Counted from the first letter of the whole stretch, positions 20,224 through 51,765 are shown. The stretch is DNA of 63,976 nucleotides, filler included, from Chrysochromulina tobinii (GCA_001275005.1; 9 parts of 9 records of this genome joined end to end with filler, not necessarily neighbours in it); one strand, 5' to 3'. Made by a program: numbers and translations. The notes: generated by a model not told the origin, from the sequence alone.

Positions 20224-20448
20224 TTCACGCTTTCAATCCCTATGAATACGAGTTCAAGTCAATGTACATGTATTGATTTCACTTGACTTTGTTCTGGGGT
20301 CAGTCCCCTGGATGGTTGGATGGGCACGGACAGCAGGACAGGGTTCGGGAAACTTGACCTAGTTAGGAAGTTCTTGCTCGCTCGTGAATGGAGCACAAGT
20401 GCAGAGCCACTTCTGCGCGAGCGAGCACGGCACCTCGCTGCATCAGCA

Positions 20449-23400
20449 ATGGGCTGCGCTAGCTCGAGCCCAGGCAAGGCCGCTCGGCTGCCGCCGCCTG
20501 GCGGTGGCGGCGGCGGCAGCACGCAGCAGACGGATGAGGATGGCTACAACCCGCTGACGCAGGAGGAGATCCATTCACGCATCCAGTGCAGCGAGAGGGC
20601 GCTCCTGTTCCCGCTCGGGAAGACGGGTGTGACATTGCGCTATGCGTACCTCTCGCAGCGCGGCTACTATCCCGATGACCTTTACAAGGCCAACCAGGAC
20701 GCGTTCAAGATCGTCGAGAGGTTCAATGGCCGGGACGACCAGATCTTTCTGGGCGTGTTTGACGGCCACGGCTCGGACGGTCACTCGTGCTCGTATTTTG
20801 TGCGCGACTCGATCGAGGCCGAGCTCAAGCGCCAGATGGCCAAGTACCCGAACGACTTCGAGAGGGCGTACCGGCTCGCGTTCGAGACCGTCAACCTGCG
20901 CATGCACGACCAGTACTTTGACGACTCAATGAGCGGGACGACGGCGATCACTGCGTTCTTCACAGGCACGACGTTCACAGTGGCGAACATTGGCGACTCA
21001 CGCGCGATGGTGGGCGAGAAGAAGGGCAAGCGAGTCATTGCCTACTCGCTCTCCATTGACCAGACGCCCTACCGTGCGGACGAGCGGGAGCGCGTCAAGG
21101 CGGCAGGTGCGGTGGTCATGTCGTGTGATCAGCTCGAAGGAGTAGTACCGTACCATGAGAATTGGGGCGTGAGTCTGGGCGAGGAGCTCGATAACGGCGG
21201 CGACCCGCCGCGCGTGTGGGCGCCCGGGAAGAGCTTCCCAGGCTGCGCGTTTACGCGCTCGATTGGCGATTCGGTCGCGGAGAGCATTGGAGTGTACTCC
21301 GAGCCCGAGTTGCTGCGCAAGGAGCTCGCTGACGGGGACCAGTTCCTTGTGCTCGCATCGGATGGCGTGTGGGAGTTTCTGACGAACCAGTCGGTCGCGG
21401 ACATCATCACGAAGTTCGACGACCCGCTCGACGGTTGCCGCGCCGTCGTGGCTGAGTCGTACCGGTTGTGGTTACAGTACGAGGTGCGGACGGACGACAT
21501 CACGATGATCCTCGCTTTCGTCGACCGTGCCAACGGCCAGAGCGGCAGAGAGCAGCCTAGGTCGGGCTCCCTCTCCACGTTGCGCCACGGCTCCCCCGAC
21601 CAAATGTCGGCCGGGCTGGGCGTCGTCGGGCGCGCTGGCGGCGAGAATCGCCCAGTACGGCGCGCGCTCTCGAAGGAGAAGAAGTCGCAGATGTCGATCT
21701 CGTCGACGTCGGCGGAGGCGGAGGACTTATCTGATTGGGTGATGGAGACGATCCCAAAGACCCGAGCGGAGCTCGCGCGCATCAAAGGCGCCGTCAAGAC
21801 CAATTTCCTCTTCCAGCACCTGAACGAGGCTCAGCAGCAGCTCGTGTTTGACGTGATGAAGCGGGTGGAAGTTAGCCGAGGCGACGTAGTCATTCGGCAG
21901 GGCGACCCGGGGGACTGGTTCTACGTCGTCGACTCGGGCGAGTTCTCAGTCTGGATGAGCCAGAATGGCAAAGAGCATCAGATCCTCAGGTACGCTTGAT
22001 GGCTGATCTCGACTGATCTCGGCTCACTGCAGATTGCCTCTTGAGTGCCTTTGAGTCCCTCTGGATTGCCTCTTTGATCAGGTACACGACCGGCGGCGGC
22101 ATCAACCCTTGCTTTGGCGAACTGGCCCTCATGTACGGCAAGCCGCGCGCGGCCACAGTGCGCGCGGACACGGTCGGCGCACTTTGGGCAATGGACCGCA
22201 AGTCGTTCCGCTCGATCTTGATGAAGTCGTCCTCGCTCACGCTCACGCGCACGCTACGCGCCGTGGCGGTCCTCAAGAGTCTCTCCGTCGGTCAGCTGCA
22301 GCGCCTGCAGGACCTGCTGACGGAGGTGACTTTCAGCCCTAATCAGAAGATCATCACGCAAGGCGAGGCGAGTGACAACCTGTACATCATCGCAGAGGGG
22401 CGCGTGCGCATCACGAAACACGAGAATGGGGGGGAGAAGCACGTCATGGACCTCGGGCAGGGAGCCTACTTTGGCGAGCGTGCCCTACTTTACTCGGAGC
22501 CACGCGCAGCTTCGGTGCATGCCGCTGAGTGCCCCCGAGTGCCTCTGACCGCCTCTGCTCGCCCCCGATCGCTTCTGGCCGCCTCTGACTGCCTCCGTCA
22601 TCAGGTGAGTGCCTCGACTGCATGCAAGCTGCTCTACATCTCCAAAGGCGCATTCGAAGAGGTCCTGGGCTCGCTGCAGGGGATCATCGACGTTGACCGG
22701 CAGACGCGCGAGGGGATCGCCCATCAGAAGGCCCTCGTCCTTGAGCAAGAGGGCCTAGCACACGTGCAGGTGCCGCACGTGTGGGAGGGCATCGAAGGCG
22801 TCGCGTGCGCGTCCGAACCCTTCCAGTACACTTTAGCGAAGCTCAAAGGGCGCGAGTACACTGTCCGGGTCGCGTCTAAGGATAAGATCGTCCAGTCTGG
22901 ATTGCATGCGCGGGTGATGGCGGAGAAGGAGCTCGTCTCGACCCTCGTACAGGAGCATCGGATGGTGCCACTTGCTCTCATGACGCTCCAGGACGAGAGC
23001 ACGCTCTTCACTGTGTACAAGCCCCGCGTCGCCATCGACCTCGCCAGCTTGATGGGGGAGAGCGGCTTCGACGAGGCGACTGCGCGATTCTACACGGCTG
23101 GGGTGCGCTGCTTTTCAGTGCCTTATCAACGGCCTCTTGATTGCCTCTGGATTGACTCTACATGGATCCTTGTTTGACTCTTGATTGCGTATCTCATCAG
23201 GTGTGCCTCGGGCTCGAGCACTTACGCGCCGAGCACAGCCGCATCATCTACCGCAACTTGACGCCCGATGCGATCATAGTCGATGCCTTGGGCTATCCGC
23301 AGCTGATGGACATGCGCTACGCCGTCAAGGTGGATTCCGCGCCCACGGACTTTTGCGGCTATGCGCATTACCTCTCGCCCGAGCAGGTGCTGGGGCAGGG

Positions 23401-23854
23401 GCACGGCTTCGCGGCAGACTTCTGGGCGCTCGGCATCCTAACGTACGAGATGTGCTGCGGCGGCGCCAACCCTTGGCTCACAGGCGACTCTGTCGAGGAC
23501 AGCGAGATGGGCATCTACGCGCGCATCTCGGCGCATTCTCACGAAGGCCTCAAATACCCCGAGGGCTCCAGCCCGTCCAAGGAGCTCGTCGAGGTGCTCG
23601 ATGGCCTGTTGCACCCCGTCCCAGGCAGCCGGCTCGGCGAGCGCGGCATGGGGCCCAAGGAGCTGCGCCACGCCAAGTGGTTCAACGGGCTTCATTGGGA
23701 CAAGCTCGAAGCGGGAAAGCTCGACTCGCCGCACAAGAGGCAGGCGCACGAGGCCGAGAGCGCCGCGCTCAGGGGAAGAACGAAACCCGACGGGCTCGGG
23801 TCCAGATACTCAGGCGAGGCGGGCCTTTTCAGCGGTTTCAGCAGCATCTTCTGA
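20449..23854 (+). CDS. Protein phosphatase 2C + two cNMP-binding domains + degenerate AGC-like kinase domain
   Basis: Exons 20449-21989, 22082-22514, 22605-23102, 23201-23854. PP2C: NQDAF, GVFDGHG, ANIGDSR, TRSIGD, LASDGVWE, DDIT. cNMP: FGELAL..PRAATV and FGERAL..PRAASV. Kinase: YRNLTPD, DMRY, YLSPE, ADFWALG. N-terminus MGC. Confidence 0.92.
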
Positions 23855-39276: not shown

Positions 39277-42080
39277 TCAGAAGTTGGCGTCGCAGAGCGC
39301 TTCGAGCCAAGGCGCGCTCTCGCCATGACGGATGCCTCGCACCTCGCGCAGCAGCCGTCGTATGAGCACATCCTCGTGCATTTGGAGCGCAAAGTACGCG
39401 GTCCAGCCGTGCCGATCGCCGGGGTGTGTGAAGAACTGGTCGGGTCGCATCGCCGGCGGCGCACCCTCTCCCAACCGAGGCCCACCGGCTCGGCGCACGA
39501 TTTCCTCAAACCACGCGTCGTCCTGAGCGCCACCCTCGCCCGCGTGGACGCTCGCGTTGCGCGCCGCGTCGTCGTGGCGGAGCGCGCCATGCTGGGCGCA
39601 TGCTGTTCGGAGCAGACGGATGTCGTCAGCGACCGTTGGATCCGTCGATGGCGCCGTGCTGGGCGCCCGGGGCGGCGCCTGCCCGGCCGCCTGCCCGGCC
39701 ACCTCGGACCGCCCAGCACGGCGCGTGTGCTTCGTGTGTGCATGCGGAGGCGAGGCCGCCGCACACAGCGCCGCCCGGACACGGTTGCAGCCGGCGGCAC
39801 GGCCGGTGCGCTGAAGGACGCTCGGAGAGCGCGGTCGCGCCGTGAAGACGTTTCCGGCGGCGTCGGTGGGCACCACCCCCGCCAGGGCGGCGCAGCCGGC
39901 GGTGGCACACGAGCGTGCGATGCAGCAGGCGACGCAGCTGCCGGCGCCGTGTCGGGCGCGCGGTGCGTCGAGTCGTCGGCGCCGTGTCGGGCGCGCGGTG
40001 AGCAAGGAGCTTCGTGAAGAAGCGTCGGATGATGGGAAGGGGAAGGCGCCTGCATGCAAGTGCTCACCACGGCGCCATGGCGATGGGAAGAGGTCAACGG
40101 CCGCCGGGCACGGTGCACCTGCTCGGCACGGCGCGCACCTGAAGGCGGGCTCGAAGGCGGCGCACGCGTCCGGGGTGGAGGTGGCGTTCTGGACGGGAAC
40201 CAGCGCAGAGCACAGGACCGGCTGCGCAACGCCCTCCCAATCAAACGCCCGGCGCAAGTCGGCTTCACGCTCGTCGTCGCGCCGTCGTGGGCGCAGCCGT
40301 ACAATCTGCGACACGCGCCCAAGCCGACCGGTCCACGTACCTGTGGGGAGCGCGCGCGCCGTGCTGAGCACTTGCATGCGCACGTGAGGGACTGTGACAC
40401 GCGCCCGAGCCGACCGGTCCACGTACCTGTGGGGAGAGCGAGCGCCGTGCTGAGCACTTGCATGCGCACGCGAGCACTGACACGTGCCCGAGCCGACCGA
40501 CCCGCTTACCTGGAACCGCTGCCCTCACCGCCGTGTCGACAAGCAGCACCTCCGGCGGCAGCATCAGGCCCGTGTCGACCAGCTGCACGTCAAACCGAGC
40601 AAAATGCGAGCGCATCAGGCAATGCGTAGGCATCGACCAGCCGTCCATATCGGGGAACTCTGCTCGGTAGCGCGCGTTGCAATTGCGTGGGCATGCCAGC
40701 CGGACCGGCGTCATCGCTCCGCCGCTCGCGCCGCCGCTTGTTGCGCCGCCGCTTGCTGCGCCGCCGCTTGCGCCGCCGCTTGCGCCGCCGCTTGTTGCGC
40801 CAGCCACGTTCGTCGGCGCCCGCATGGTCTTCAGAACCGGCCAGAGCGCGCGCGGCACGAGCAGCAGCACATCATCCTCACTCACGATCGTCTGCGGGCT
40901 GAGCCTCGCCGCCATTGTCGCCAATCGGCCCCCATCGGCGACCGGTACCTTGAAGACTTGATCGGTGCGCACCTAATGAGGGAGGCAATCATACTGATGA
41001 GCCAGGCAATCAGCCTTCGGCCACCGGTAACTTGGAGACTTGATCGGTGCGCACCTTGAGCATCGCGTCGTAAATGTACGGCGCGCCCTCATCCTCGTGC
41101 TCGGCCCGGCGCGCACCACCACGCTCGGCGCGGCGCGCCTCGTACTGCTCGATGAGCTCGACGCAATCTGCCCAACGGCCAAATTGGGCAGTCGAGGGCA
41201 GCCCGCAACTAATGGGCTCCGGCACCGTGCGCAGGCGCACTCCGAGAGGGCGCAGGCCGGTGAGCGCCGTGCCGAGCAGCTCCGCGTGCGCCGCGGGCGC
41301 CTCCCACGGCCCCGCCGCCTGCCGCTGCTTGGTGGATCGCCAGCTAAAAGACTCGCGCCATTGACTTGGTGGGAAGAGATCCGACGCATCTGTGTAGCGG
41401 TGCGAGCGCGCGGCGGCGCCGTAGGGCGAGTCCTCGGGCCCGGTCGAGAGCACGACGAAGGCGTCGAGGCCCGGCTCGGCGCGCGCGCCGTGGGTGCGCC
41501 CGAGCACATGCTGCTCGATACTCCTCCACACGGTCGGGTGCACGAGACTGCGCGGCATGCCCGCGATGCATACGGCGACGCGCGCTGCCCGAGCCGAGGT
41601 TGGCGCGGGCACGGGCGGCGGCGGTGGCCGTCGCTGATGGCGCTGCTGCACCTGGAGCCACGGGAAGTGCGACGCGTTGCCGATGCGCGGCCGAGGCTGC
41701 CGACGAAAGTGTGGCCGCTCGTGGCTGCCTCGGAGCGGCTCCGGCATCAGGCAGTGCTCTGCGCACGGCGGCGCGAGCAACACGCCGGCCACGCAACCGC
41801 TAGCTGGGTGGGCTCGATGCAGTGGCAGGTGCATCTTCATGCAGCATCGCGACGCGATGGGCGGCGACGCCACGGGCAAATACGGCGCGTTGCACACGGC
41901 CGTCACATACGTCCACGCGAGGCAGCCGAGCGTGGCTGCGCAGAGCTCGCAGCACTCGTCTGCGGTCGACACGGGCTCACACGGGCCAAGTTGCGCGGTT
42001 GGCCGTAGCCAGCTGCCGTCGGGATCGCGCGCCGTCGGCGTCAACCACGAGGCGTTGGATGTGTGCGAACAGGCCTCCAT
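39277..42080 (-). CDS. PAN/apple-like domain + putative glycosyltransferase-like domain + Cys-rich C-terminus
   Basis: Exons 42080-41055, 40972-40510, 40340-39277. TADECCELCAATLGCLAWTY..CCMK (PAN); RVAVCIAG.PR, DAFVVL, QF..W..C, YDAMLKVRTD (GT-like). Confidence 0.65.
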
Positions 42081-45000
42081 GGCATGAAATACATGTTCTC
42101 TTCTGTACGGCCGTTCATGTGTGAACGTTAACACGACACACGTGTAAACCTCAACCTGAAAAACTTTGGATCTAATTTCTTACTGCACATATATCTATGC
42201 ATCTAAGGGATAACCCTGTAGCTCCCTGTATGAATGCACATCATGATGTTGAGCACAGAGGGCTTCTGCAGCTGGAGGTAAAAACTATAGCGGTGGTCGG
42301 CAGGGCGCCGCGGCTCCTCGTGTGCCCTCCACTTCTAAGCCGCGCGCACTGAGATCTTCAGAAGCGCGGCGGCGGCGGCCCAGTCGCCGGCCTGGCCACG
42401 GCGGTGGCTCCCGGCCGAGGCGAGGCGTAACCGCCGTAACCACCCCCCGGGGGTGGTGTGTCCATGCCGCCCGGCGCTGGATACCACGGCGGCTGCGGCG
42501 GCTGCGGCGGCTGCGGCGGCGGCGGCGGCGGCGGCGCGTATCCATGCGAGGCGCGGCCGGCCGCGGAGGCAGAGGCAGTGCACGCGCGAGGCGACTTGGG
42601 AGGGGTGCCCGGGGCGGCGCCCGGGGCGGCGCCCGCCCGAGGCGGTGGCGGCCGTCGCTGCGGCGAGGCGAGAGCGACCTGCCGATCGGCGAGGAGGAGC
42701 GATGCGAGGTGCACGAATGAGGCAGGCAATCAGCATGCAATCAGAGATCATCAGAGCGACCTACCTGGAGTGACTCGAGCTCCTGCGCGAGCTGCCCCAC
42801 CTCATGGAGCGCCACCTCGCGCTGCGAGGTCACTCGCTCCGCCGCGAGCTGCTGCGAGCTCCGCTGCATCTCGGCGTGATCTCGCTCCTCCTTGAGCACC
42901 GCGTACGCCCTCCGGATCTCGGCGAGATCGCGCTTGGCGGCGACGAGCGCCGCCTTGGCGGCCTCCTCTCGCCGCCTCGCCTCGTCGGCTGCCTCCTTGG
43001 CCTGCGCGAGCGCCTGCCCCGCACCCTCCTTCTCCTGTCGTATTTGGGTCGCCTGCCGCTTTTCAGCCTTGAGTCGCTGTGCGGTCGCCTGGTGCGCAGC
43101 CGTCTGTTCCCTGAGCTCCTCGCGCACCTGATGAGGGAGGCGATCAGAGGCCATCAGAGGTGATAAGAGGCGATCAGAGGCGATAAGAGGGCATCAAAGG
43201 TCGAGAGCTTCACACGCACAGCCGCGAGCGCCTTGGCGAGCTTGCGCGACTCGCGATGCGATCCCATGAGCTCATCCGCCTCCGCCTCGGACACGTCCGC
43301 CGGCCGGCCGAGAGCGACGAGCGCCCACCGGTGCAACGCGCGCGCACACCTGTGGGGAGAGCGCGCCGTGGTGAGCACTTGCATGCATACGACGAGCGCC
43401 CGCAGGTGCGACGCGCGCGCGCACCGGTCGCGACGGATCAGAGGCAATCAGAGGCAATTAGAGGACAACTAGAGGCAATTAGAGGCCAATTAGAGGACAA
43501 TTAGATGACAATTAGAGGCAATCCGAGGCAATCAGAGCGCGCGCGCACCGGTCGCGACGGACGCCACAGCGGAGGAGATGTTCGAGACGGGCGGCGCCCG
43601 CAAGCCTTCGGGCCTGCTTGCCAGCGTCGGCATGGGCGAGCACCTGTGAGGGGTTCGTCAACGGCACTCAGAGAGAGGCACGCAATCAGAGAGAGGCATG
43701 CCGAAAGGCGAGCACCTCGCCGCGCTCGAGCGCCGTCTCGGTCATCTCGAGGGCCTTGCGCGCGTGCGCCTCGGCGGCATCCGCGCGCGCGCTCTCGGCG
43801 TCCTTGTCCGTCTTGAGCTTCTCCATCGCCGCGCGGTGCAGCCGCGCGCGCTCGAGCGCGGCTGCTTCCCGAGCGGCGGCGTCCTTGCGATCGGCCTTGA
43901 GCTCGGCGATCTCGCGGAGCAGCGTCGAGCGCTCCTGTGGGGAATGGAGGGGGGGGGCGCTGTGGTGAGCACCTGCATGCAAGGGCAGGGCTCGGCGATC
44001 TCGCGGAGCAGCGTCGAGCGCTCATCACAGCGCGCCGTTGGGGACGTCGCTGCTTCGCGTTGCCTCGAGCGCTCATCACAGCGCACCTTTTGTGACGTCG
44101 CCGCCTCGCGTTGCTTCGCCTTCTCGCGCTCGATGGCCGCCTCGGCGTCGGTCTTGCCCGCCTTGAGCGCCTCGCGCGCCTCGCGCAGGCTGCGTGCCAA
44201 TCCGAGGCAATTAGAGGCAATTAGAGGCAATTAATAGAGGCCATCATCAGAGGCCATCATCAGAGGCCATCATCAGAGGCCATCATCAGAGGCCATCATC
44301 AGAGGCCATCATCAGAGGCCATCAGAGGCCATCAGAGGCCTTCAGAGGCCTTCAGAGGCCTTCAGAGGCACTTGGAGGCACTCACCTGCGTGCCAATCCG
44401 TCGCGCTCGGCCTGCAGCGTCGCCACCGTCTTGCGCAGCGACCCCTCCTCGAGCGTGCCCGACACGGCGCGCTGCGCCTCGGCCTGGGACGTGGCGAGGG
44501 AGGCCGCGAGGGCCGTGCGCTCCTCGCGAAGCGTCGCGAGGCCCTTCTTGAGCGCCTTCTCGCGCTCGGTCGCCGCGTCGCGCTCGTACCGGAGACGTTT
44601 CGATTCCTCGAGCAGCTCCTGCATGCAATGAGGGAGGCCATCAGAGGCGCACTCAGAGGGGCGCGCGCTCAGGCGCACTCAGGCGCACTCAGGCGCGCTC
44701 AGGCGCCTTCAGGCGCGCTCAGGCGCGCTCAGGCGCCTTCAGGCCCTCCATGAGTCGATCGAGACGGAATCGAGATCGAATCGAGATCGAATCGAGATCG
44801 AATCCGAGGGTTTCGTCGCGCACCTTGGCACCGAGCAGCCGGGCGGTTTCGCGCCACGCCCAGAGCACACGGAGGCACGAGCCGCCCCCAAATGGAGAGA
44901 GCCACACGACGCGCTGGAGCTCGAGCAGCCGTGCGGTGCGACGCCCGGCGGCCTCGACGGTCGTGGCCTTTAAGCCGCCGGCGCCGGCGCCGCCACCGTT

Positions 45001-48000
45001 TGCCATCGCGGCGGCAAAGGCGCTGTTGGCGGCGGCGAAGGCGGTGGCGCCCCCGGGCTGAGCGCCGTACTGAGCGCTCACGGCACTCGCGCTCGAGAGC
45101 GTCGTGCTGAGCGCTTGGCGTTCGGGCACCGGCTGCAGCGCGAGCGCCGTGCCGAGCGCGTGGTTCGGCGGCGGCGGCAGCGACGCGCGCGTCGACGGCG
45201 GCGCACGCGGCGGCGGCGAGAGCGAGGGCGAGGTGACGGGCGGCTTGTCGCGCTCGTCGCGGCGCTCCTGTGCCGTGTGGAGGGTGTGGAGGGTGTGGAG
45301 GGTCCGTCGGAAGGGGCAATTGGGCTCCGGCGCTGTGGTGAGCACTCGCATGCAAGGGAAGGTCATCAGTGGCAATCAACGTACCTGGAGGGTGCGTCGG
45401 AAAGGGAAGTTGGGCTCGGGCCCACTCGAGGCGTAATAGACCCATCGACGGAGCGCCTCCCCCGCCACACAGAGCCAGGAGGCGGTGAGGCACGCGTCCA
45501 ACCGGCGCGCCGCCGCGAGCAGCTCCGACTTGCTCAGTTGCTCCTCTAGAGAGGGTACCTCGGCAAGCACCTGATGACGAGGGAGGCCATCGAGGGTGTG
45601 AATTGAGGCCATCATCAGAGGCCATCATCAGAGGCCGATTCAGATACCATCTCCCGAGAGCGCATCTCCCGAGATCGCACTTCCCTGGCCCTCAGCTTAA
45701 GGGAGATCGAGGGCACTCAAGGGAGATCGAAGGAGATCGAAGGAGATAGAGGGAGATCATGGGAGATCAGGGGAGATCGCACCTCCTTGGCATCCCTCAG
45801 CTCGCGCCGTGCCGCGAGCGCCTCCGCCGCCTTGGCCTTCGCGTCCTCCCGAGCGCCCTCCGCCTCCCGCGCCGCCCCCTCGAGCTGCTCGCGGAGTGCG
45901 GCTTCGCGTGCTGCCGCGGCCGCGCGCGTCGCTTCGTGTGCACGATCTCGCTCGAGCTCCTGCGCGGCGCTCGCGGCCTGAGGGCGCTGTGGTGAGCACT
46001 CGCATGCAAGGGCAGGTCATCAGTGGCCATCAACGTACCTGGAGGGTGCGCAGTCGCTCGTGCTCCGCCGCCGCCGCCTCCTCGAGCTCCGCCCGCAAAG
46101 CCGCACGCGCCTCCGCCGCCGTTGCCGCCTCCGCCGCCGCCGCGGACCAACGGTCGCGCATCTCGTCCACCTCGCGCTCGACCGCGCTCAACTCGGCGCT
46201 CAGCGCCGCGCGGACGGCGTCGGCGTCGGCGAGCGCCGAGTTGAGCGCGAGGTTGCCGAGATGGCGCTGCTCGTCGCGCTGGCGGAGCGCCGTACCGAGC
46301 GCCGACTGGAGCCGCTGCGCCTCCATTTGCGTGGCGCCGAGCTGTCGCTGCACCTCCCTCTGCATCGCCTGCAGCGCCGCGTGCTGCTCGAGCTGCTTCT
46401 GAGAGCCCTCCACGAGCGTCATCGAATCGAGCAGCTGGGCTCGCAGCTCCACCTGCAGCCCATCTGCGTGGATCCGAGCCTGCGCCACCTCCACCTCCAC
46501 CTCGCCGAGCGCCGTGCTGAGCACGCGCTGCGACGCCTCGAACGCGCGCACGTGCGCGCTCATCTCGGCGACCAGCTGGGCGCGCGCCGTCTCGGTGCGC
46601 TCCCGTTGGGCGCGCGCCTCGAAGGTGAGCGCCTCCATCGCCTCGTCCGCCGCCGCGCGCGCCGCCTGCGCCGTCTCGAGTGCGCGCGCGCCCGCCTGGA
46701 GTTGATGGCGGAGGTGGCCGAGCTCACCACGGCGCGGCAGCTCGGGGTGATTCTCGAGCCGCTCGAGCGACCTGTGGGGAGGTGAGGGCGCCGTGGTGAG
46801 CACTTGCATGCAGGTAGCTCGGGATGATTCTCGAGCCGCTCGAGCGACCTCCACGCGCGCTTTGCCGTTACGAGCCATCCCTGGCTCGTCATTTGGGTCG
46901 TCGTTTGGTCATGGCCGATTGGTGTGGCCTTGGGCCGCGGCCGATCAGCCGCCGCCGCTGCGCCCGCCGCAGCGCCGAAGCCACCTATCTTTGCGGCGGC
47001 GGGCGGGGCGGCGGGCGGGGCGGCGGGCGGGGCGGGGCCGTCTGCGCTGCTTCTCGCGCTTGCCGCGGGGGTGGGCGTCGTCTTGGGCACCAGGCGTTCC
47101 TCGAGGGCCGCGAGGCCCTCCGCGAGGTCGTCGAGCGCCGAGGCGGCCGCGTACCTAATGAGGAAGGCAATCATCCTAATGAGGGAGGCAATCATGATAA
47201 TGAGGGGGGCCATCGTCCTAATGAGGGGGGCATCCATCCTAATGAGGGAGGCACTCCTCCTAATGAATGCCTCACTCCTCCTAATGAATGCCTCACTCAT
47301 CCTAATGAGTGCGCCACTCAATCCTCCGCGAGGTCATCGAGCGCCGAGCCGGGCGCGTACCCGTCTTCGAGGCGCAGCGCCGCCGCGAGCTCGAGAGCAG
47401 CCGCATGTCGACGCACCTGTGGGGAGGCGATGGCGCCGTAGTGAGCACATGCGTGCTTGGAGAGGGCAGCCGCATGTCGACGCACCGCATGCCCCTGCTC
47501 GGCCGCCGCCTCCTTGGCCACCGCCAGATCGCCCTCGAGCTGCGATCTCGCGGTCTCGAGCTGCGATCTCGAGGCCGCCAGATCGCCCTCGAGCTGCGCC
47601 GCGCGCGCGCGTGCCTCTTCGACCTCGGCGGAGAGCGTGTCGATCGTCTGGTCCGCCACCAACAACGACTCCGCCACCTGATGAGGAAGGCAATCAGAGG
47701 TCATCAGAGAGGTCATCAGAGGTCATCAGAGGTCATCAACAACGACTCCGCCACCTCGGCCGCATCAGTCTCGGTCTTGAGACGCAGCTGCTCTTCGGCC
47801 GCACAGGCGGCCGCCTTGGCCGCCGCGACCTCCTTGGCAACACGCAGCCGCTCACGTAGCGCCGCCCCTTGCGTCTCCTCGGCCCCGATGGCAATCTGCA
47901 CCGGCGCGCGAGAGGGGAGGTGAGCAGCAGTCCAGATCACTCAGCGGTCACTCCGAGGTCACTCCGAGGTCACTCCGAGGTCACTCCGAGGTCACTCCCA

Positions 48001-51000
48001 GGTCACTCCGAGGTCACTCCGAGGTCACTCCGAGGTCACTCCCAGGTCACTCCGAGGTCACTCCGAGGGCACTCCGAGGTCACTCCCAGGTCACTCCGAG
48101 GTCACTCCGAGGGCACTCCGAGGTCACTCCCAGGTCACTCCGAGGTCACTCCGAGGTCACTCCGAGGTCACTCCGAGGTCACTCCGAGGTCACTCCGAGG
48201 TCACTCCGAGGTCACCCCGAGGTCATCAGAGGTCGCGAGCACACCTGCACCGCCGCGAGTGATGTGAGCAGTTGGTCGAGCGAGGGAGGGAGCGCCTCGT
48301 GCAGCGGCGGCAGCGGCGAGGTATGCGTGAGCGGCACGAGGCTCGCGTGCACCTGATGAGGGGGGCAATCATGAGTGTCATCAGATGCGGGAGGCTGACG
48401 AGGGAGGCTGATGAGGGAGGCAATCAGGCACGAGGCTCGCGTGCACCGTCCCAAGCAGCTCGCCGATCTCGAATAATTGGACTAATTGGGTCTCCTGCTC
48501 GAGCTCGAGCAGAGATTGCTGGAAGTGCCACTCGGACTCGGCCGCGCGCGCGAGCTCCATCTGCGCCTGCGCCTGCGCCTGCGCCAGCTGCGCCTCCGCC
48601 TGCGCCCTCGACAGCACCTCCGCCGCCGTCTCATACGAGAGGGGTTCTCCCCCGTGCATGGGAGCGTCATAGAGCGTCTCGTCGAGCAAGTGGAGCCCCT
48701 CCTCCCCCGCCTCGGCATGGGGCGACGCATGCAAGTGCCCACCACGGCGCGCGCGAGAGGGGAGCCCCTCCTCCCCCGCCTCGGCATGGGGCGACAGCGG
48801 CGGCTCGCGGTGCTCGCGACGGCGCGAGGCCAATGGGGGGGGGCGCCGTACCGGGCGCGTGCTGCGGCGACGGCGCGGGCGGCGGATGCGAAGGCAGCAG
48901 CTGCGGCAGCGGCGAGGGACCGTGCGTCGGGAGCTGTGCGGGTGCCCAGGACGGCGCCACGTGCGAGTCGCGCCGCAGCTGCGTGGCGCCCAGTACGGCG
49001 CCCTCGAGGCGCCTCTGCCGTTCGCGCTCCTCCATTTGAGTCGCCCTCGCCATGCGCGCCTCCGCCTTCGCGCGCTGCTCGGCCAACGCCTGGAGCTGCC
49101 CTTGGACGCTCGTGTGGAGCTGCCCTTGGACGCTCGTGTGGAACTGCCCTTGGACGGAGCGAGAGTGCACCTGGCCGGCGCGAGATTGCATCTGGCGCTC
49201 GTCCGCTGAGCGAGATTGCATCTGGCGCTCGTCCGCTGAGGCATCGGCGCGTGCGCCCATCAGCTGCGCCTGCGCACATTCAGCGTCCCGGCGGGCCGCC
49301 ACCGCCGAGTCCGACGCCGACGCTCGGAAGTCTCTCGGAAGTCTCTCGGAAGTCTCTCGGAAGTCTCTCGGAAGTCTCTCGGAAGTCTCTCGGAAGTCCG
49401 ACGCCGACGCCGAGAGAGTCTGAAGTCGCTCGGAAGTCTCTCGGAAGCGGGCCAGCGCCGCCTCCGTCTCCGGCGCACCCGCCGATGCGAAGTACGGGGG
49501 GGCGGAGGCGTGCGGCAGCGTCGAGTTGGGCGGAGGCGCGACCACCGAGAACTGTGCCGAAAGCGAGCACGCGGCACGGGGGGCGCCCGCCACGACGCCC
49601 GGCGCACCGCCCGCCACGACGCCCGGCGCGACGCCCTGTGAACGGTCCGTTGGCGAGGCCAGGTGTGAACGGCCCCCTGGCGAGGGCCGGTGTGAACGTG
49701 TGCCCGAGCTGCGAGGCGGCGACATGAACTCGTCGGTGGGCGTCGTGGTGGGCGCGGCGCTGCCTGCTGGCGGTTCCGGGGGTGAGGTGTTCGGGGGGGA
49801 GGTGTTCGGGTAGGTGGGTTGGCGTGGCTCATAGCACTGAGGCGCGGGCTGTGGCGAAGGGGGGAGCGCATCGACTTCATGCGGGACGCCGAGCCGCGCC
49901 TCTCTCCCCCTCATCGGCCCGCCGCCTCCTCCCACCCCAACGGCAGCCGCGCTACCCGCCAGCACGGCGCCAGCGGAGCCGCCCGCCACGATGCCCGCGC
50001 CCGAGGCCGCCAAGTTGCGCTCGACACAGCGCTCGGGCCCGCGCGCTGGCGACGAGGAGTTGACGAACCCCCGTTCGGGGTGGCAGGCAGGGACAATGCG
50101 AGCGCCCGCCGTGCTGCGCGTGGCCGACGGCGCCGTGCCGGGCGCGGTGCGCGCCGTGCCGGGCGCGGCGGCGCCCGCCTCCGCGCCAGTCGCGCGCATG
50201 GGGCGGCTCGGCTTCGGTTGTCGCGCCGCCGCCGGGTCGACGCACTGCGGGCGCTCCCAGTGGACCTCGGCCGCGTACCCGCCGCTCGTGCCGCAGCCGC
50301 CGCCCACTCCGATGACGGAGGGGGGCGCCCAGTTGGGCGCCCACGACGGCGCGGGCGCCAGGGCCGCTCCGCGCGCCAACGGCAGCCCATTCACAGGCTG
50401 ATTCACAGGCTGGTTCACCATATGGGCCGGCGCCGAGTTGAGCGCCGGCGCGAGTGAATGGAGAGTGGGCGGCTGGGCGAACCGGGGCGCCGAGTTGAGC
50501 GCCATCGAGCGTGCCGCGCTGGGCGCCGTCGTGGGCGCATCCTCCGGCGGCGAAGGCGGCGGCGACATGGGATTCGAACCGCACGGCTCGAACGGCGCTA
50601 CTTCCATGCCGTGCAGTAGTTCGGGCTTCCGATCGGGCGCTGTCGTGGGCTTCCGATCGGGCGCTGTCGTGGGCTTCCGATCGGGCGCTGTCGTGGGCTT
50701 CCGATCGAGCCACGCCTCCGACCAGCGTTCCACAGCTTGGCCCAGCAGAGCCTCGCGACGCTCCTCCGCGCGCTCCGCGAGGCGCCCACGACAGCGCTCC
50801 GCGTGCTCGGCGAGTCGGCGCTTCTCGGCCTGCCGCGCACCTGTGGGGAGAGGGGCGTGGTCGCGCCGTGGTGAGCACTTGCATGCGGCGCGCGGCGTAC
50901 GCGTGCTCGGCCGACCGCGCCGTCGTGGGCGACGCACCGTGCTTGAGACGTTCCGCCTCCGCCGCGGATGTCTGCGTGTCGTAAAGTTGGGGCGGCGGCG

Positions 51001-51765
51001 CCCGCATGAGCTCTTCACAGCCCTCGGCTGCGCCGTGCATCGCCGCTTCCGCCGCGATCACGACGCCGTAGACGGCCGCAAAGAGATCCGAATCGTTCAT
51101 CGCGCCGTGGTGAGCACTTGCATGCGCAAAGAGATCCGAATCGTTCATCGCGCCGTGGTGAGCACTTGCATGCGCAAAGAGATCCGAATCGTCCCTCGCC
51201 GCCGCCGCCGCCTCGGACTGCGGACTTGGCGGCCGGTCGAGGGTCACCCCCTGTGGGAAATGGAGCAAGGGCAGCACCCTGCAGGCGGGCACGCTGCAGG
51301 CGCCCACGGCAGCGCTGCAGACGCCCGCAGACGCGGCCGGCTCCGCGGATGACGACGACCCCGCGTGTGCATCGAGGGCGTTGGTCCTTGACGAACCTTG
51401 ACGAACCTTGACGGACCTTGTCGGCGACCCCGCGTGTGCATCGAGGGCGTGAGGGAAATGGGAGGAGGCGTCGGCATGCGATGTGGCGGCGGGCGCGCTG
51501 TGGTGGGCATGCGCGCTGTGATGGGCATGCGCGCTGTGGTGGGCATGGGAGGAGGTGTCGGCATGAGATGTGGCGGCGGGCAGAGCGGCGGCGCTGTGGT
51601 GGGCATACGCGCTGTGGTGGACATGCGCGCTGTGGTGGGCATGAGCGCTGTGGTGGGCATGCGCGCTGTGGCGAGCATGGGCGCTGCGCCATAGTTCGAG
51701 CTCTGCCTGCGCGGCTGCCAAGCTGTCCCTGGCAGTGAGCAACTCCTGTGGCTGCTGCTGCCGCA

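Follow-up and report, generated by a model that had tools for sequence, protein, structure and literature searches.

A reversed cassette A copy between perfect 35-nt duplicates suggests recent insertion of an intron-making element into a coding exon

Introduction

How does a short stretch of DNA that elsewhere closes introns come to lie backwards inside a coding exon, between two identical copies of 35 nt, and what becomes of it in the transcript? The segment 48692-48795 of the window (the whole stretch of DNA that was analysed, 63,976 nt with filler included) raises this question. Introners are the best candidate for bursts of intron gain and their movement is mostly unexplained.

Results

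Structure of the segment

The segment is made of three parts:

48692..48726, no strand assigned, first copy of the target duplication, 35 nt; its minus strand encodes SPHAEAGEEGL, which is single-copy in the related open reading frames P0004-P0007
48727..48760, plus strand, cassette A copy lying antisense, a variant with GCCCAC; its minus-strand reading is PSRARRGGHLHA, absent from P0004-P0007
48761..48795, no strand assigned, second copy of the target duplication, 35 nt, identical to the first

Direct sequence comparison bears out the initial annotation, which had described perfect 35-nt repeats around a 34-nt cassette. The two flanks, each GGAGCCCCTCCTCCCCCGCCTCGGCATGGGGCGAC, agree at 35/35 positions, and the direct repeat reaches 38 nt with one mismatch if begun at 48689/48758. 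The 34 nt between them are GCATGCAAGTGCCCACCACGGCGCGCGCGAGAGG, giving a period of 69, and the minus-strand frame runs through all three parts as SPHAEAGEEGL-PSRARRGGHLHA-SPHAEAGEEGL. The longest exact direct repeat at a spacing of 40-120 was 11-13 nt in 10 Markov-1 simulations of the window. Both junctions are present in DNA unitigs of run X1 (48697-48756 and 48737-48790), and the 35-mer forms a separate X1 unitig at about double depth (85 vs 38-56), so the structure is not an obvious misassembly; run X1 may be the window's own source data, and its agreement is not independent support.

The cassette at 48727-48760 has one mismatch to the 24-nt core of its family, and a tail, GCGCGAGAGG, replaces the pyrimidine tract and the CACAG of other copies. 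The stretch 48727-48763, including the unusual tail GCGCGAGAGGGGA, is identical over 37 nt to positions 301-337 of L099, another cassette locus, where the same variant sits inside a tandem cassette intron; RNA and DNA contigs with a foreign, L099-like context also map to the cassette stretch. The final 3-5 nt of the insert (GGA / GGGGA) overlap the start of the duplicate, so that the right boundary of the insert is ambiguous by short microhomology.

Cassette A copies in the window

The 24-nt core, GCATGCAAGTGCTCACCACGGCGC, occurs in the window in 14 copies at four mismatches or fewer, 12 on the minus strand and 2 on the plus strand, and its 16-nt head occurs 13 times at two mismatches or fewer, against 0.11 expected. 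In most copies the core is followed by a C/T-rich tract ending in CCCCACAG. The sense copies in the window are flanked by direct repeats of 25-39 nt with periods of 69-90 nt; the upstream repeat begins at AG|GT, and the downstream repeat begins right after CACAG. Similarity between cassettes extends to the 3' intron boundary only, and the 5' part of each intron is a locus-specific duplicated piece of exon. By reading of the ends, the cassette termini, GCATGCAAG... and ...CCCCACAG, do not form an inverted pair. The other copy on the plus strand, at 40052 (a 12-nt repeat with period 51), was set aside, as no coding signal was seen nearby on either strand.

The host gene runs on the minus strand

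RNA contigs from four runs give six junctions between 43.3 and 52.7 kb, all of them GT..AG on the minus strand. The six introns are 43644-43715, 43935-44086, 44619-44823, 45571-45782, 48353-48446 and 50841-50937, and all six have the donor G|GTGC and the acceptor CAG. The features that frame the insertion, together with one further cassette intron, are:

48447..50840, minus strand, large coding exon holding the insertion, with RNA-supported introns 48353-48446 and 50841-50937 at its ends
48353..48446, minus strand, spliced 94-nt intron of another cassette type; joint 48332/48427 in runs X14, X16 and X17
50841..50937, minus strand, spliced 97-nt intron; joint 50835/50933 in X14, X16 and X17
43935..44086, minus strand, spliced 152-nt intron; one X17 RNA contig joins 43933 to 44086

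Intron 48353-48446 carries a 21-nt duplication at its two ends, and the 21 letters at the joint fit either side. The 3' end of intron 50841-50937 is a sense cassette A (core 50863-50886, ending CACAG), and intron 43935-44086 likewise ends in a sense cassette A (core 43957-43980). The CACAG of the cassette is thus the 3' splice site in 2/2 RNA-supported cassette introns, which shows that sense cassette A supplies the acceptor end of real introns; CTCAC in the cassette core would be the branch site.

Exon 48447-50840 encodes a repeat-rich, low-complexity protein whose C-terminal part is coiled-coil-like, and is colinear with the uninterrupted open reading frames P0004 (688 aa) and P0005 (262 aa). 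Codon log-odds, from a model trained on the spliced flanks of family copies, favour minus-strand frames from 48400 to 49330, and, as the deciding evidence, the frames P0004-P0007 are uninterrupted through the homologous region, on the strand that matches the window's minus strand. With six minus-strand GT..AG junctions and these homologous frames the gene lies on the minus strand, and the cassette, being on the plus strand, is antisense to it, as the initial annotation had read it. A gene with PP2C, cyclic-nucleotide-binding and kinase parts shows a eukaryote; in the nearest Atlas cluster Haptophyta are the commonest phylum, on 3 members of known phylum only, which is a weak lead.

The site is empty in relatives

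The relatives are four open reading frames on other contigs, of which P0005 (262 aa) and P0006 (287 aa) are close and P0004 (688 aa) and P0007 are diverged. Compared at the protein level, the target is single-copy and the cassette absent in 4/4. Alignment of P0005 with the frame-a translation of the window leaves one clean gap, exactly 23 residues long; on its flanks the two differ only by Val/Gly inside the target and by Pro/Leu five residues downstream of the target. P0006 has this gap too, again of 23 residues. In P0004 and P0007 the HAExxEEG segment occurs once, and the gap, in more diverged sequence, is of 26 residues. A search by tblastn with P0004 and P0002 against the metagenome loci that carry the core gave no match.

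The single target copy without cassette in P0004-P0007 indicates that the ancestral state was one copy and no cassette. At a position that is Val in all four relatives, both duplicates in the window have Gly, as expected of a recent duplication. These comparisons strongly support, from sequence, a recent gain of 69 nt in the lineage of the window, consisting of the cassette and the duplicated target. The proposal that the cassette is an inserted unit with a target duplication, rather than a splice signal that evolved in place, holds up against all four single-copy relatives and the clean gap in P0005. The net gain had also been described as 69 nt in frame; it is exactly 23 codons, in the conserved frame, and equals the gap in P0005.

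Long duplications are the rule of the family

On metagenome contigs the exact 24-nt core was found at at least 134 loci in at least 157 copies, at least 150 of them unique by their flanks; 5 of the 150 listed unique copies were left out for short flanks and 145 were analysed. With a flanking repeat defined by a score of at least 30 and a period of at most 140, such a direct repeat is present in 98/145 copies among the matches listed, compared with 18/400 random window positions. The repeats of these 98 listed copies are 17-57 nt long (median about 30), with a median period of 79; the duplication of 35 nt and the period of 69 of the 48692-48795 copy lie within the range of the family. Long flanking duplication is the rule of cassette A. 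The listed copies sit at unrelated sites with unrelated flanks, cassette A has no poly-A tail, and the 5' edge of the conserved sequence is sharp, 0-5 nt from the core in most of the copies listed. Four of the 145 listed copies carry 27-31 nt of a 31-nt 5' module (GGTGCGTTGATTGCC...) with its own GT, and in copies with this module the duplicate's end can supply the AG.

GT and AG lie exactly one period apart in 69 of the 93 copies with a period of 110 or less (again among the matches listed), an arrangement by which splicing would restore the message as it was before insertion. Each new cassette A intron is therefore a duplicated piece of exon plus the cassette. The duplications are perfect in 28 of the same 93 listed copies. 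The periods of the 69 excisable listed copies divide 18/27/24 over the three classes modulo 3; those of the listed copies that GT..AG would not excise divide 10/9/5 (n=24), with no clear bias. A subgroup picked post hoc from the matches listed (acceptor module lacking, with a tail of at most 6 nt, period of at most 70, all sense) has 6/8 periods that are multiples of three (48, 51, 54, 57, 60 and 63, against 55 and 68), which is suggestive at most.

Orientation of the copies

Adjacent copies more than 150 nt apart within a locus are co-oriented in 32/33 pairs (32:1), counted on cores with at most three mismatches and on loci that were not de-duplicated. The RNA-supported stretch from 43.3 to 52.7 kb holds 10 sense copies and 1 antisense. 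A census of antisense copies was made on the 145 listed metagenome copies with a strand classifier based on codon log-odds, which in cross-validation called 42/51 known-sense copies sense, with none below -15. Its calls on these 145 were 58 sense, 7 antisense and 80 ambiguous. The 7 antisense calls are probably misclassified; they show ordinary sense splice architecture or tandem cassette arrays, and none resembles 48692-48795. Classifier and inspection together gave no second convincing antisense exonic copy among the 145 listed.

The 48692-48795 copy is a rare exception, which shows that reverse insertion can happen. The broader statement of the initial annotation, that insertion is not strand-restricted, has this one clear copy in its favour, but is overstated, with neighbours co-oriented 32:1 and no second case among the 145 listed.

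Reading frame at the insertion

The reading frame of the exon departs from that of its close relative at one further feature:

48835..48843, no strand assigned, run of nine G (C9 on the gene strand), at which the window frame is +1 relative to P0005

Frame b of the window agrees with P0005 at every residue up to GTAPPP, and frame a does so from PPPLASRRREH onward. The run lies about 40 nt (13 codons) upstream of the insertion. Either a homopolymer error or a genuine frameshift underlies the shift; in the second case translation does not follow the conserved frame, or this strain's copy of the gene is in decay.

A decaying allele, broken by the +1 shift at the G9 run and free of coding constraint, would leave the 69 nt a multiple of three by coincidence, with the insert transcribed and either untranslated in the conserved frame or read in frame b to the stop at 48667-48669. 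The shift relative to P0005 at 48835-48843 and the X1 contigs, which have no indel there, speak for such an allele. So do the open frames: in this GC-rich DNA all 6/6 are open across 48692-48795, so that the absence of stops carries no information on selection, and one length in three is divisible by three in any case. But the downstream coiled-coil part still matches P0005 without a difference for about 80 residues, RNA is made from the gene and spliced at 48353-48446, a homopolymer of nine bases is a classic site of assembly error, and X1 may be the assembly's own data. We regard decay of the allele as unlikely.

Insertion or break repair

A reversed copy at the DNA level with a target duplication speaks against an origin by reverse splicing into a transcript. 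Break repair in place of transposition is a rival reading: a staggered or resected double-strand break in the exon would be filled in at its overhangs, giving the 35-bp duplication, and abundant intron sequence would be captured or copied into the gap. Several features of the family agree with this. The element is very small (34-50 nt) and without inverted ends, and the duplication length varies (17-57 nt among the matches listed), as does the captured extent, which may be the core only, the core with the 3' module, or the 5' module with the core. At 48692-48795 the right junction has the 3-5 nt microhomology (GGA / GGGGA), shared with L099, and the 37-nt identity to L099 would fit templated repair synthesis too. 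What sets repair back is the regularity of the family. At least 150 independent sites have the same 24-nt core with a sharp 5' boundary, subfamilies of tails are common to unrelated sites, and the pattern looks like a dedicated and repeated process, not like sporadic capture of filler. Repair in place of transposition is, on this evidence, decidedly improbable.

Fate of the insert in the transcript

RNA covers the site in part: an X16 contig spans 48616-48696, depth is 0 on 48783-48869, a gap that counts neither for nor against retention, and the RNA pieces on 48723-48773 bear foreign flanks and so come from other cassette loci such as L099. These RNA runs consist of k-mer contigs, broken at the 35-nt repeat, and in none of them is either junction bridged within its genomic surroundings. 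On the minus strand the 48692-48795 region has no GT..AG pair that would remove a multiple of three at a realistic length. The sole sizeable candidate intron runs from GT 48795 to AG 48711 (85 nt, GTCGCC..GAG); it is unlike the confirmed introns with their G|GTGC and CAG, which makes retention likely. That the reversed insert created a new minus-strand intron here, from GT 48795 to AG 48712-48711, and so offset the +1 frameshift can be dismissed as highly improbable: 85 is 1 mod 3, exactly what joins frame b to frame a, but the donor GTCGCC has no preceding G, the acceptor GAG has no pyrimidine tract, all six confirmed introns use other ends, and no such joint occurs in the RNA contigs with their break at the repeat.

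From the sequence, then, the insert is likely kept in mRNA and protein, with its translation in the conserved frame less certain than its retention in mRNA.

Discussion

A recent insertion of a reversed cassette

We consider it reasonably probable that a mobile 3'-splice-site cassette was recently inserted in reverse into this minus-strand exon with duplication of 35 bp, and that the insert, likely retained, would add 23 residues to the protein. The cassette would enter the coding exon at the DNA level, and the 35-bp duplication would arise by fill-in of a long staggered break, with a stagger that is presumably variable, given the 17-57 bp duplications of the family. In a sense copy, the 5' splice site would be the GT with which the duplicated target begins, and splicing would restore the original message. 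A reversed cassette offers no usable signals to the spliceosome, hence its likely retention in mRNA; once retained, it would be translated as 23 extra residues, and this insert may be tolerated in a fast-evolving, repeat-rich part of the protein. The sense bias of about 30:1 would come from selection against copies that cannot be spliced rather than from the insertion machinery; with one antisense case only, selection and machinery cannot be told apart as its source. Besides the break of the RNA contigs at the repeat, the six open frames, the one-in-three chance of a multiple of three, the +1 shift upstream and the 37-nt identity to L099, two more observations weigh against this explanation. 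The window and the matches listed hold only one clear antisense copy, and the cassette at 48727-48760 is a variant without pyrimidine tract and CACAG.

Cassette A among known routes of intron gain

The tandem-duplication model of intron gain starts from the duplication of a piece of exon with AGGT in it. As in that model, a cassette A intron begins at the GT of the first duplicate, ends at the AG exactly one period downstream and is excised without scar; unlike it, a foreign cassette between the duplicates provides the pyrimidine tract, the AG and probably the branch site. Elements that move by target-primed reverse transcription (SINE/LINE) have duplications of variable length and an element extent that varies from copy to copy. 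Cassette A varies in both respects too, but it has no poly-A or simple-repeat tail and its duplications are longer than usual for such elements.

The introner elements of Micromonas pusilla and Aureococcus are reportedly MITE-like DNA transposons (Huff, Zilberman and Roy, 2016). Like them, as far as the accessible descriptions go, cassette A is short and presumably non-autonomous, makes introns in bulk and co-opts a splice site from the duplication. In those same descriptions the elements have duplications of 3-8 bp, terminal inverted repeats and lengths of about 100-200 nt, none of which holds for cassette A. Typical introners are likewise described, in the accessible part of a review, with duplications of 3-8 bp and inverted termini (PMC11282704). 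Of the features by which introners are known, cassette A shows many near-identical intronic copies, splicing in 2/2 cases and a target-site duplication; terminal inverted repeats of the MITE type were not seen when its ends were read.

The closest comparison is with introners of Symbiodinium microadriaticum, which, in the accessible parts of the report, bring the 3' splice site with them, gain the 5' site from a duplication of 4 bp and have inverted termini (Gozashti et al. 2022, bioRxiv 10.1101/2022.06.06.494994 / PMC9860276). So far as that account extends, cassette A resembles them in being multi-copy at unrelated gene positions, in giving the acceptor, and in drawing the GT from the duplicated target such that splicing restores the message. 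Against their 4-bp duplication and inverted termini, as described there, cassette A has duplications of 17-57 bp and a length of about 34-50 nt, with no inverted termini seen. Copied exon makes up about a third to a half of each new cassette A intron, and the 48692-48795 copy is reversed and likely not an intron, both unlike the S. microadriaticum introners in the parts of the report available. The same parts describe an Aureococcus introner family by which the transcript gains 12 bp (4 codons) (Gozashti et al. 2022, PMC9860276). Our locus is like that family, as there described, in the extra in-frame coding sequence and in having been found by comparison with an isolate lacking the insertion. 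While the Aureococcus element is, by that description, spliced and leaves 4+8 bp behind, here the whole reversed element with its 35-bp duplication (69 nt) would remain.

Searches of the literature on introners and intron gain, which took in part of the supplements, returned no description of the cassette A family. The core motif is absent from the visible part of the PMC9860276 supplement and from 12/14 supplement files of PMC12130899, and a literature search for the motif as text gave unrelated matches only. In their architecture, cassette A introns are a hybrid of the duplication and transposon models.

Implications

The locus is a natural experiment, as a filled site with perfect 35-bp duplicates can be set against an empty site in a near-identical relative. 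The reversed element indicates that the DNA was broken with an unusually long stagger. Should the insert be translated, a peptide spanning EEGLPSRARRGGHLHASPHAE is expected, and the locus would show how an intron insertion that failed turns directly into 23 new amino acids. If our reading is true, this intron-making element goes into DNA both ways round. A form of intron creation in which a piece of exon is duplicated and joined to a cassette is absent from the introner descriptions compared here, in the parts accessible. A wider and more tentative view, to which we give somewhat less than even weight, is that this alga makes introns with cassettes of about 40-50 nt that go in at staggered breaks of long and variable overhang (17-57 bp), with up to half of each new intron copied from adjoining exon, that integration takes no account of the direction of transcription, as the reversed in-frame copy at 48727 would show, that the bias arises by selection through splicing, and that failed introns become protein. 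If true, the transposon and tandem-duplication models would be fused in one mechanism of intron gain.

Long, core-only and plus-strand forms of the cassette

Beyond the common form, in which the core is followed by a pyrimidine tract and CACAG (the acceptor module), cassette A occurs in a long form, in which the 24-nt core is preceded by a further module, and in core-only and plus-strand copies.

45330-45385 and 45984-46040: long element form, with a 31-nt 5' module before the core
51077-51204, minus strand: tandem array, 2.6 copies of a 48-nt unit (24-nt cassette core plus 24 nt of flank)
40052-40075, plus strand: second cassette copy on this strand, with a 12-nt flanking repeat at period 51

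The long form is also carried by four metagenome contig loci with the exact core (L130, L049, L013 and L105), and its 5' module (GGTGCGTTGATTGCCACTGATGACCTGCCTT) brings its own GT donor upstream of the core. At L130 the acceptor AG of the long form is supplied by the end of the duplicated target, an arrangement that is the mirror image of that of the common cassette form.

In the tandem array the core lies in sense orientation without an acceptor module, and the 48-nt unit is in frame within a long ORF (...HASAHHGAMNDSDLFA...). Comparable core-only copies at metagenome loci, among the matches listed, present periods (the distance between flanking direct repeats) of 48, 51, 54, 57, 60 and 63, as against 55 and 68. 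The plus-strand copy at 40052-40075, which adjoins minus-strand cassette copies at 40356-40465, is not classifiable as exonic because no coding signal was found around it.

Surroundings of the antisense insertion

At 48835-48843, upstream of the antisense copy (48727-48760) in gene direction, the window has a G9 homopolymer (C9 on the minus strand, which is that of the gene), and there its coding frame shifts by +1 relative to P0005, the near-identical 262-aa ORF that lacks the insert. This shift, which lies in an expressed gene, is either a homopolymer assembly error or a frameshift specific to this strain.

Short tandem repeats are dense at 47937-48234, at 49323-49398 and at many other sites in the window; their units include 11 nt (27 and 7 copies) and others of 24, 30 and 48 nt. 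Many of them sit within the long minus-strand ORF, the relatives of which differ by whole repeat units. Another gene, elsewhere in the window, encodes a row of domains.

20287-23851, plus strand: successive ORFs with PP2C phosphatase, cyclic-nucleotide-binding and protein kinase domains

These ORFs are a fused signalling gene of a kind typical of protists.

End duplications and insertions at other loci

An intron adjacent to the coding exon that holds the insertion is of a cassette type other than A.

48353-48446, minus strand: RNA-confirmed 94-nt intron, ending ...CTGATGACACTCATGATTGCCCCCCTCATCAG

A 21-nt duplication is present at both its ends, and the intron at 43644-43715 has an end duplication of 11 nt; long end duplications are therefore not confined to cassette A.

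The 37-nt insert variant (GCCCAC core plus the tail GCGCGAGAGGGGA) recurs exactly at another locus, on a metagenome contig (L099:301-337), inside a tandem cassette array. Among RNA/DNA contigs, one more has the variant in a further context, with GGAGCCCCTCCTC after it, and may represent a paralogous locus. L038, a contig of another metagenome, matches window 43013-43811 at 92-97% identity and also has the cassette insertion found at 43363-43386. This insertion is therefore present in more than one strain and predates the one at 48727.
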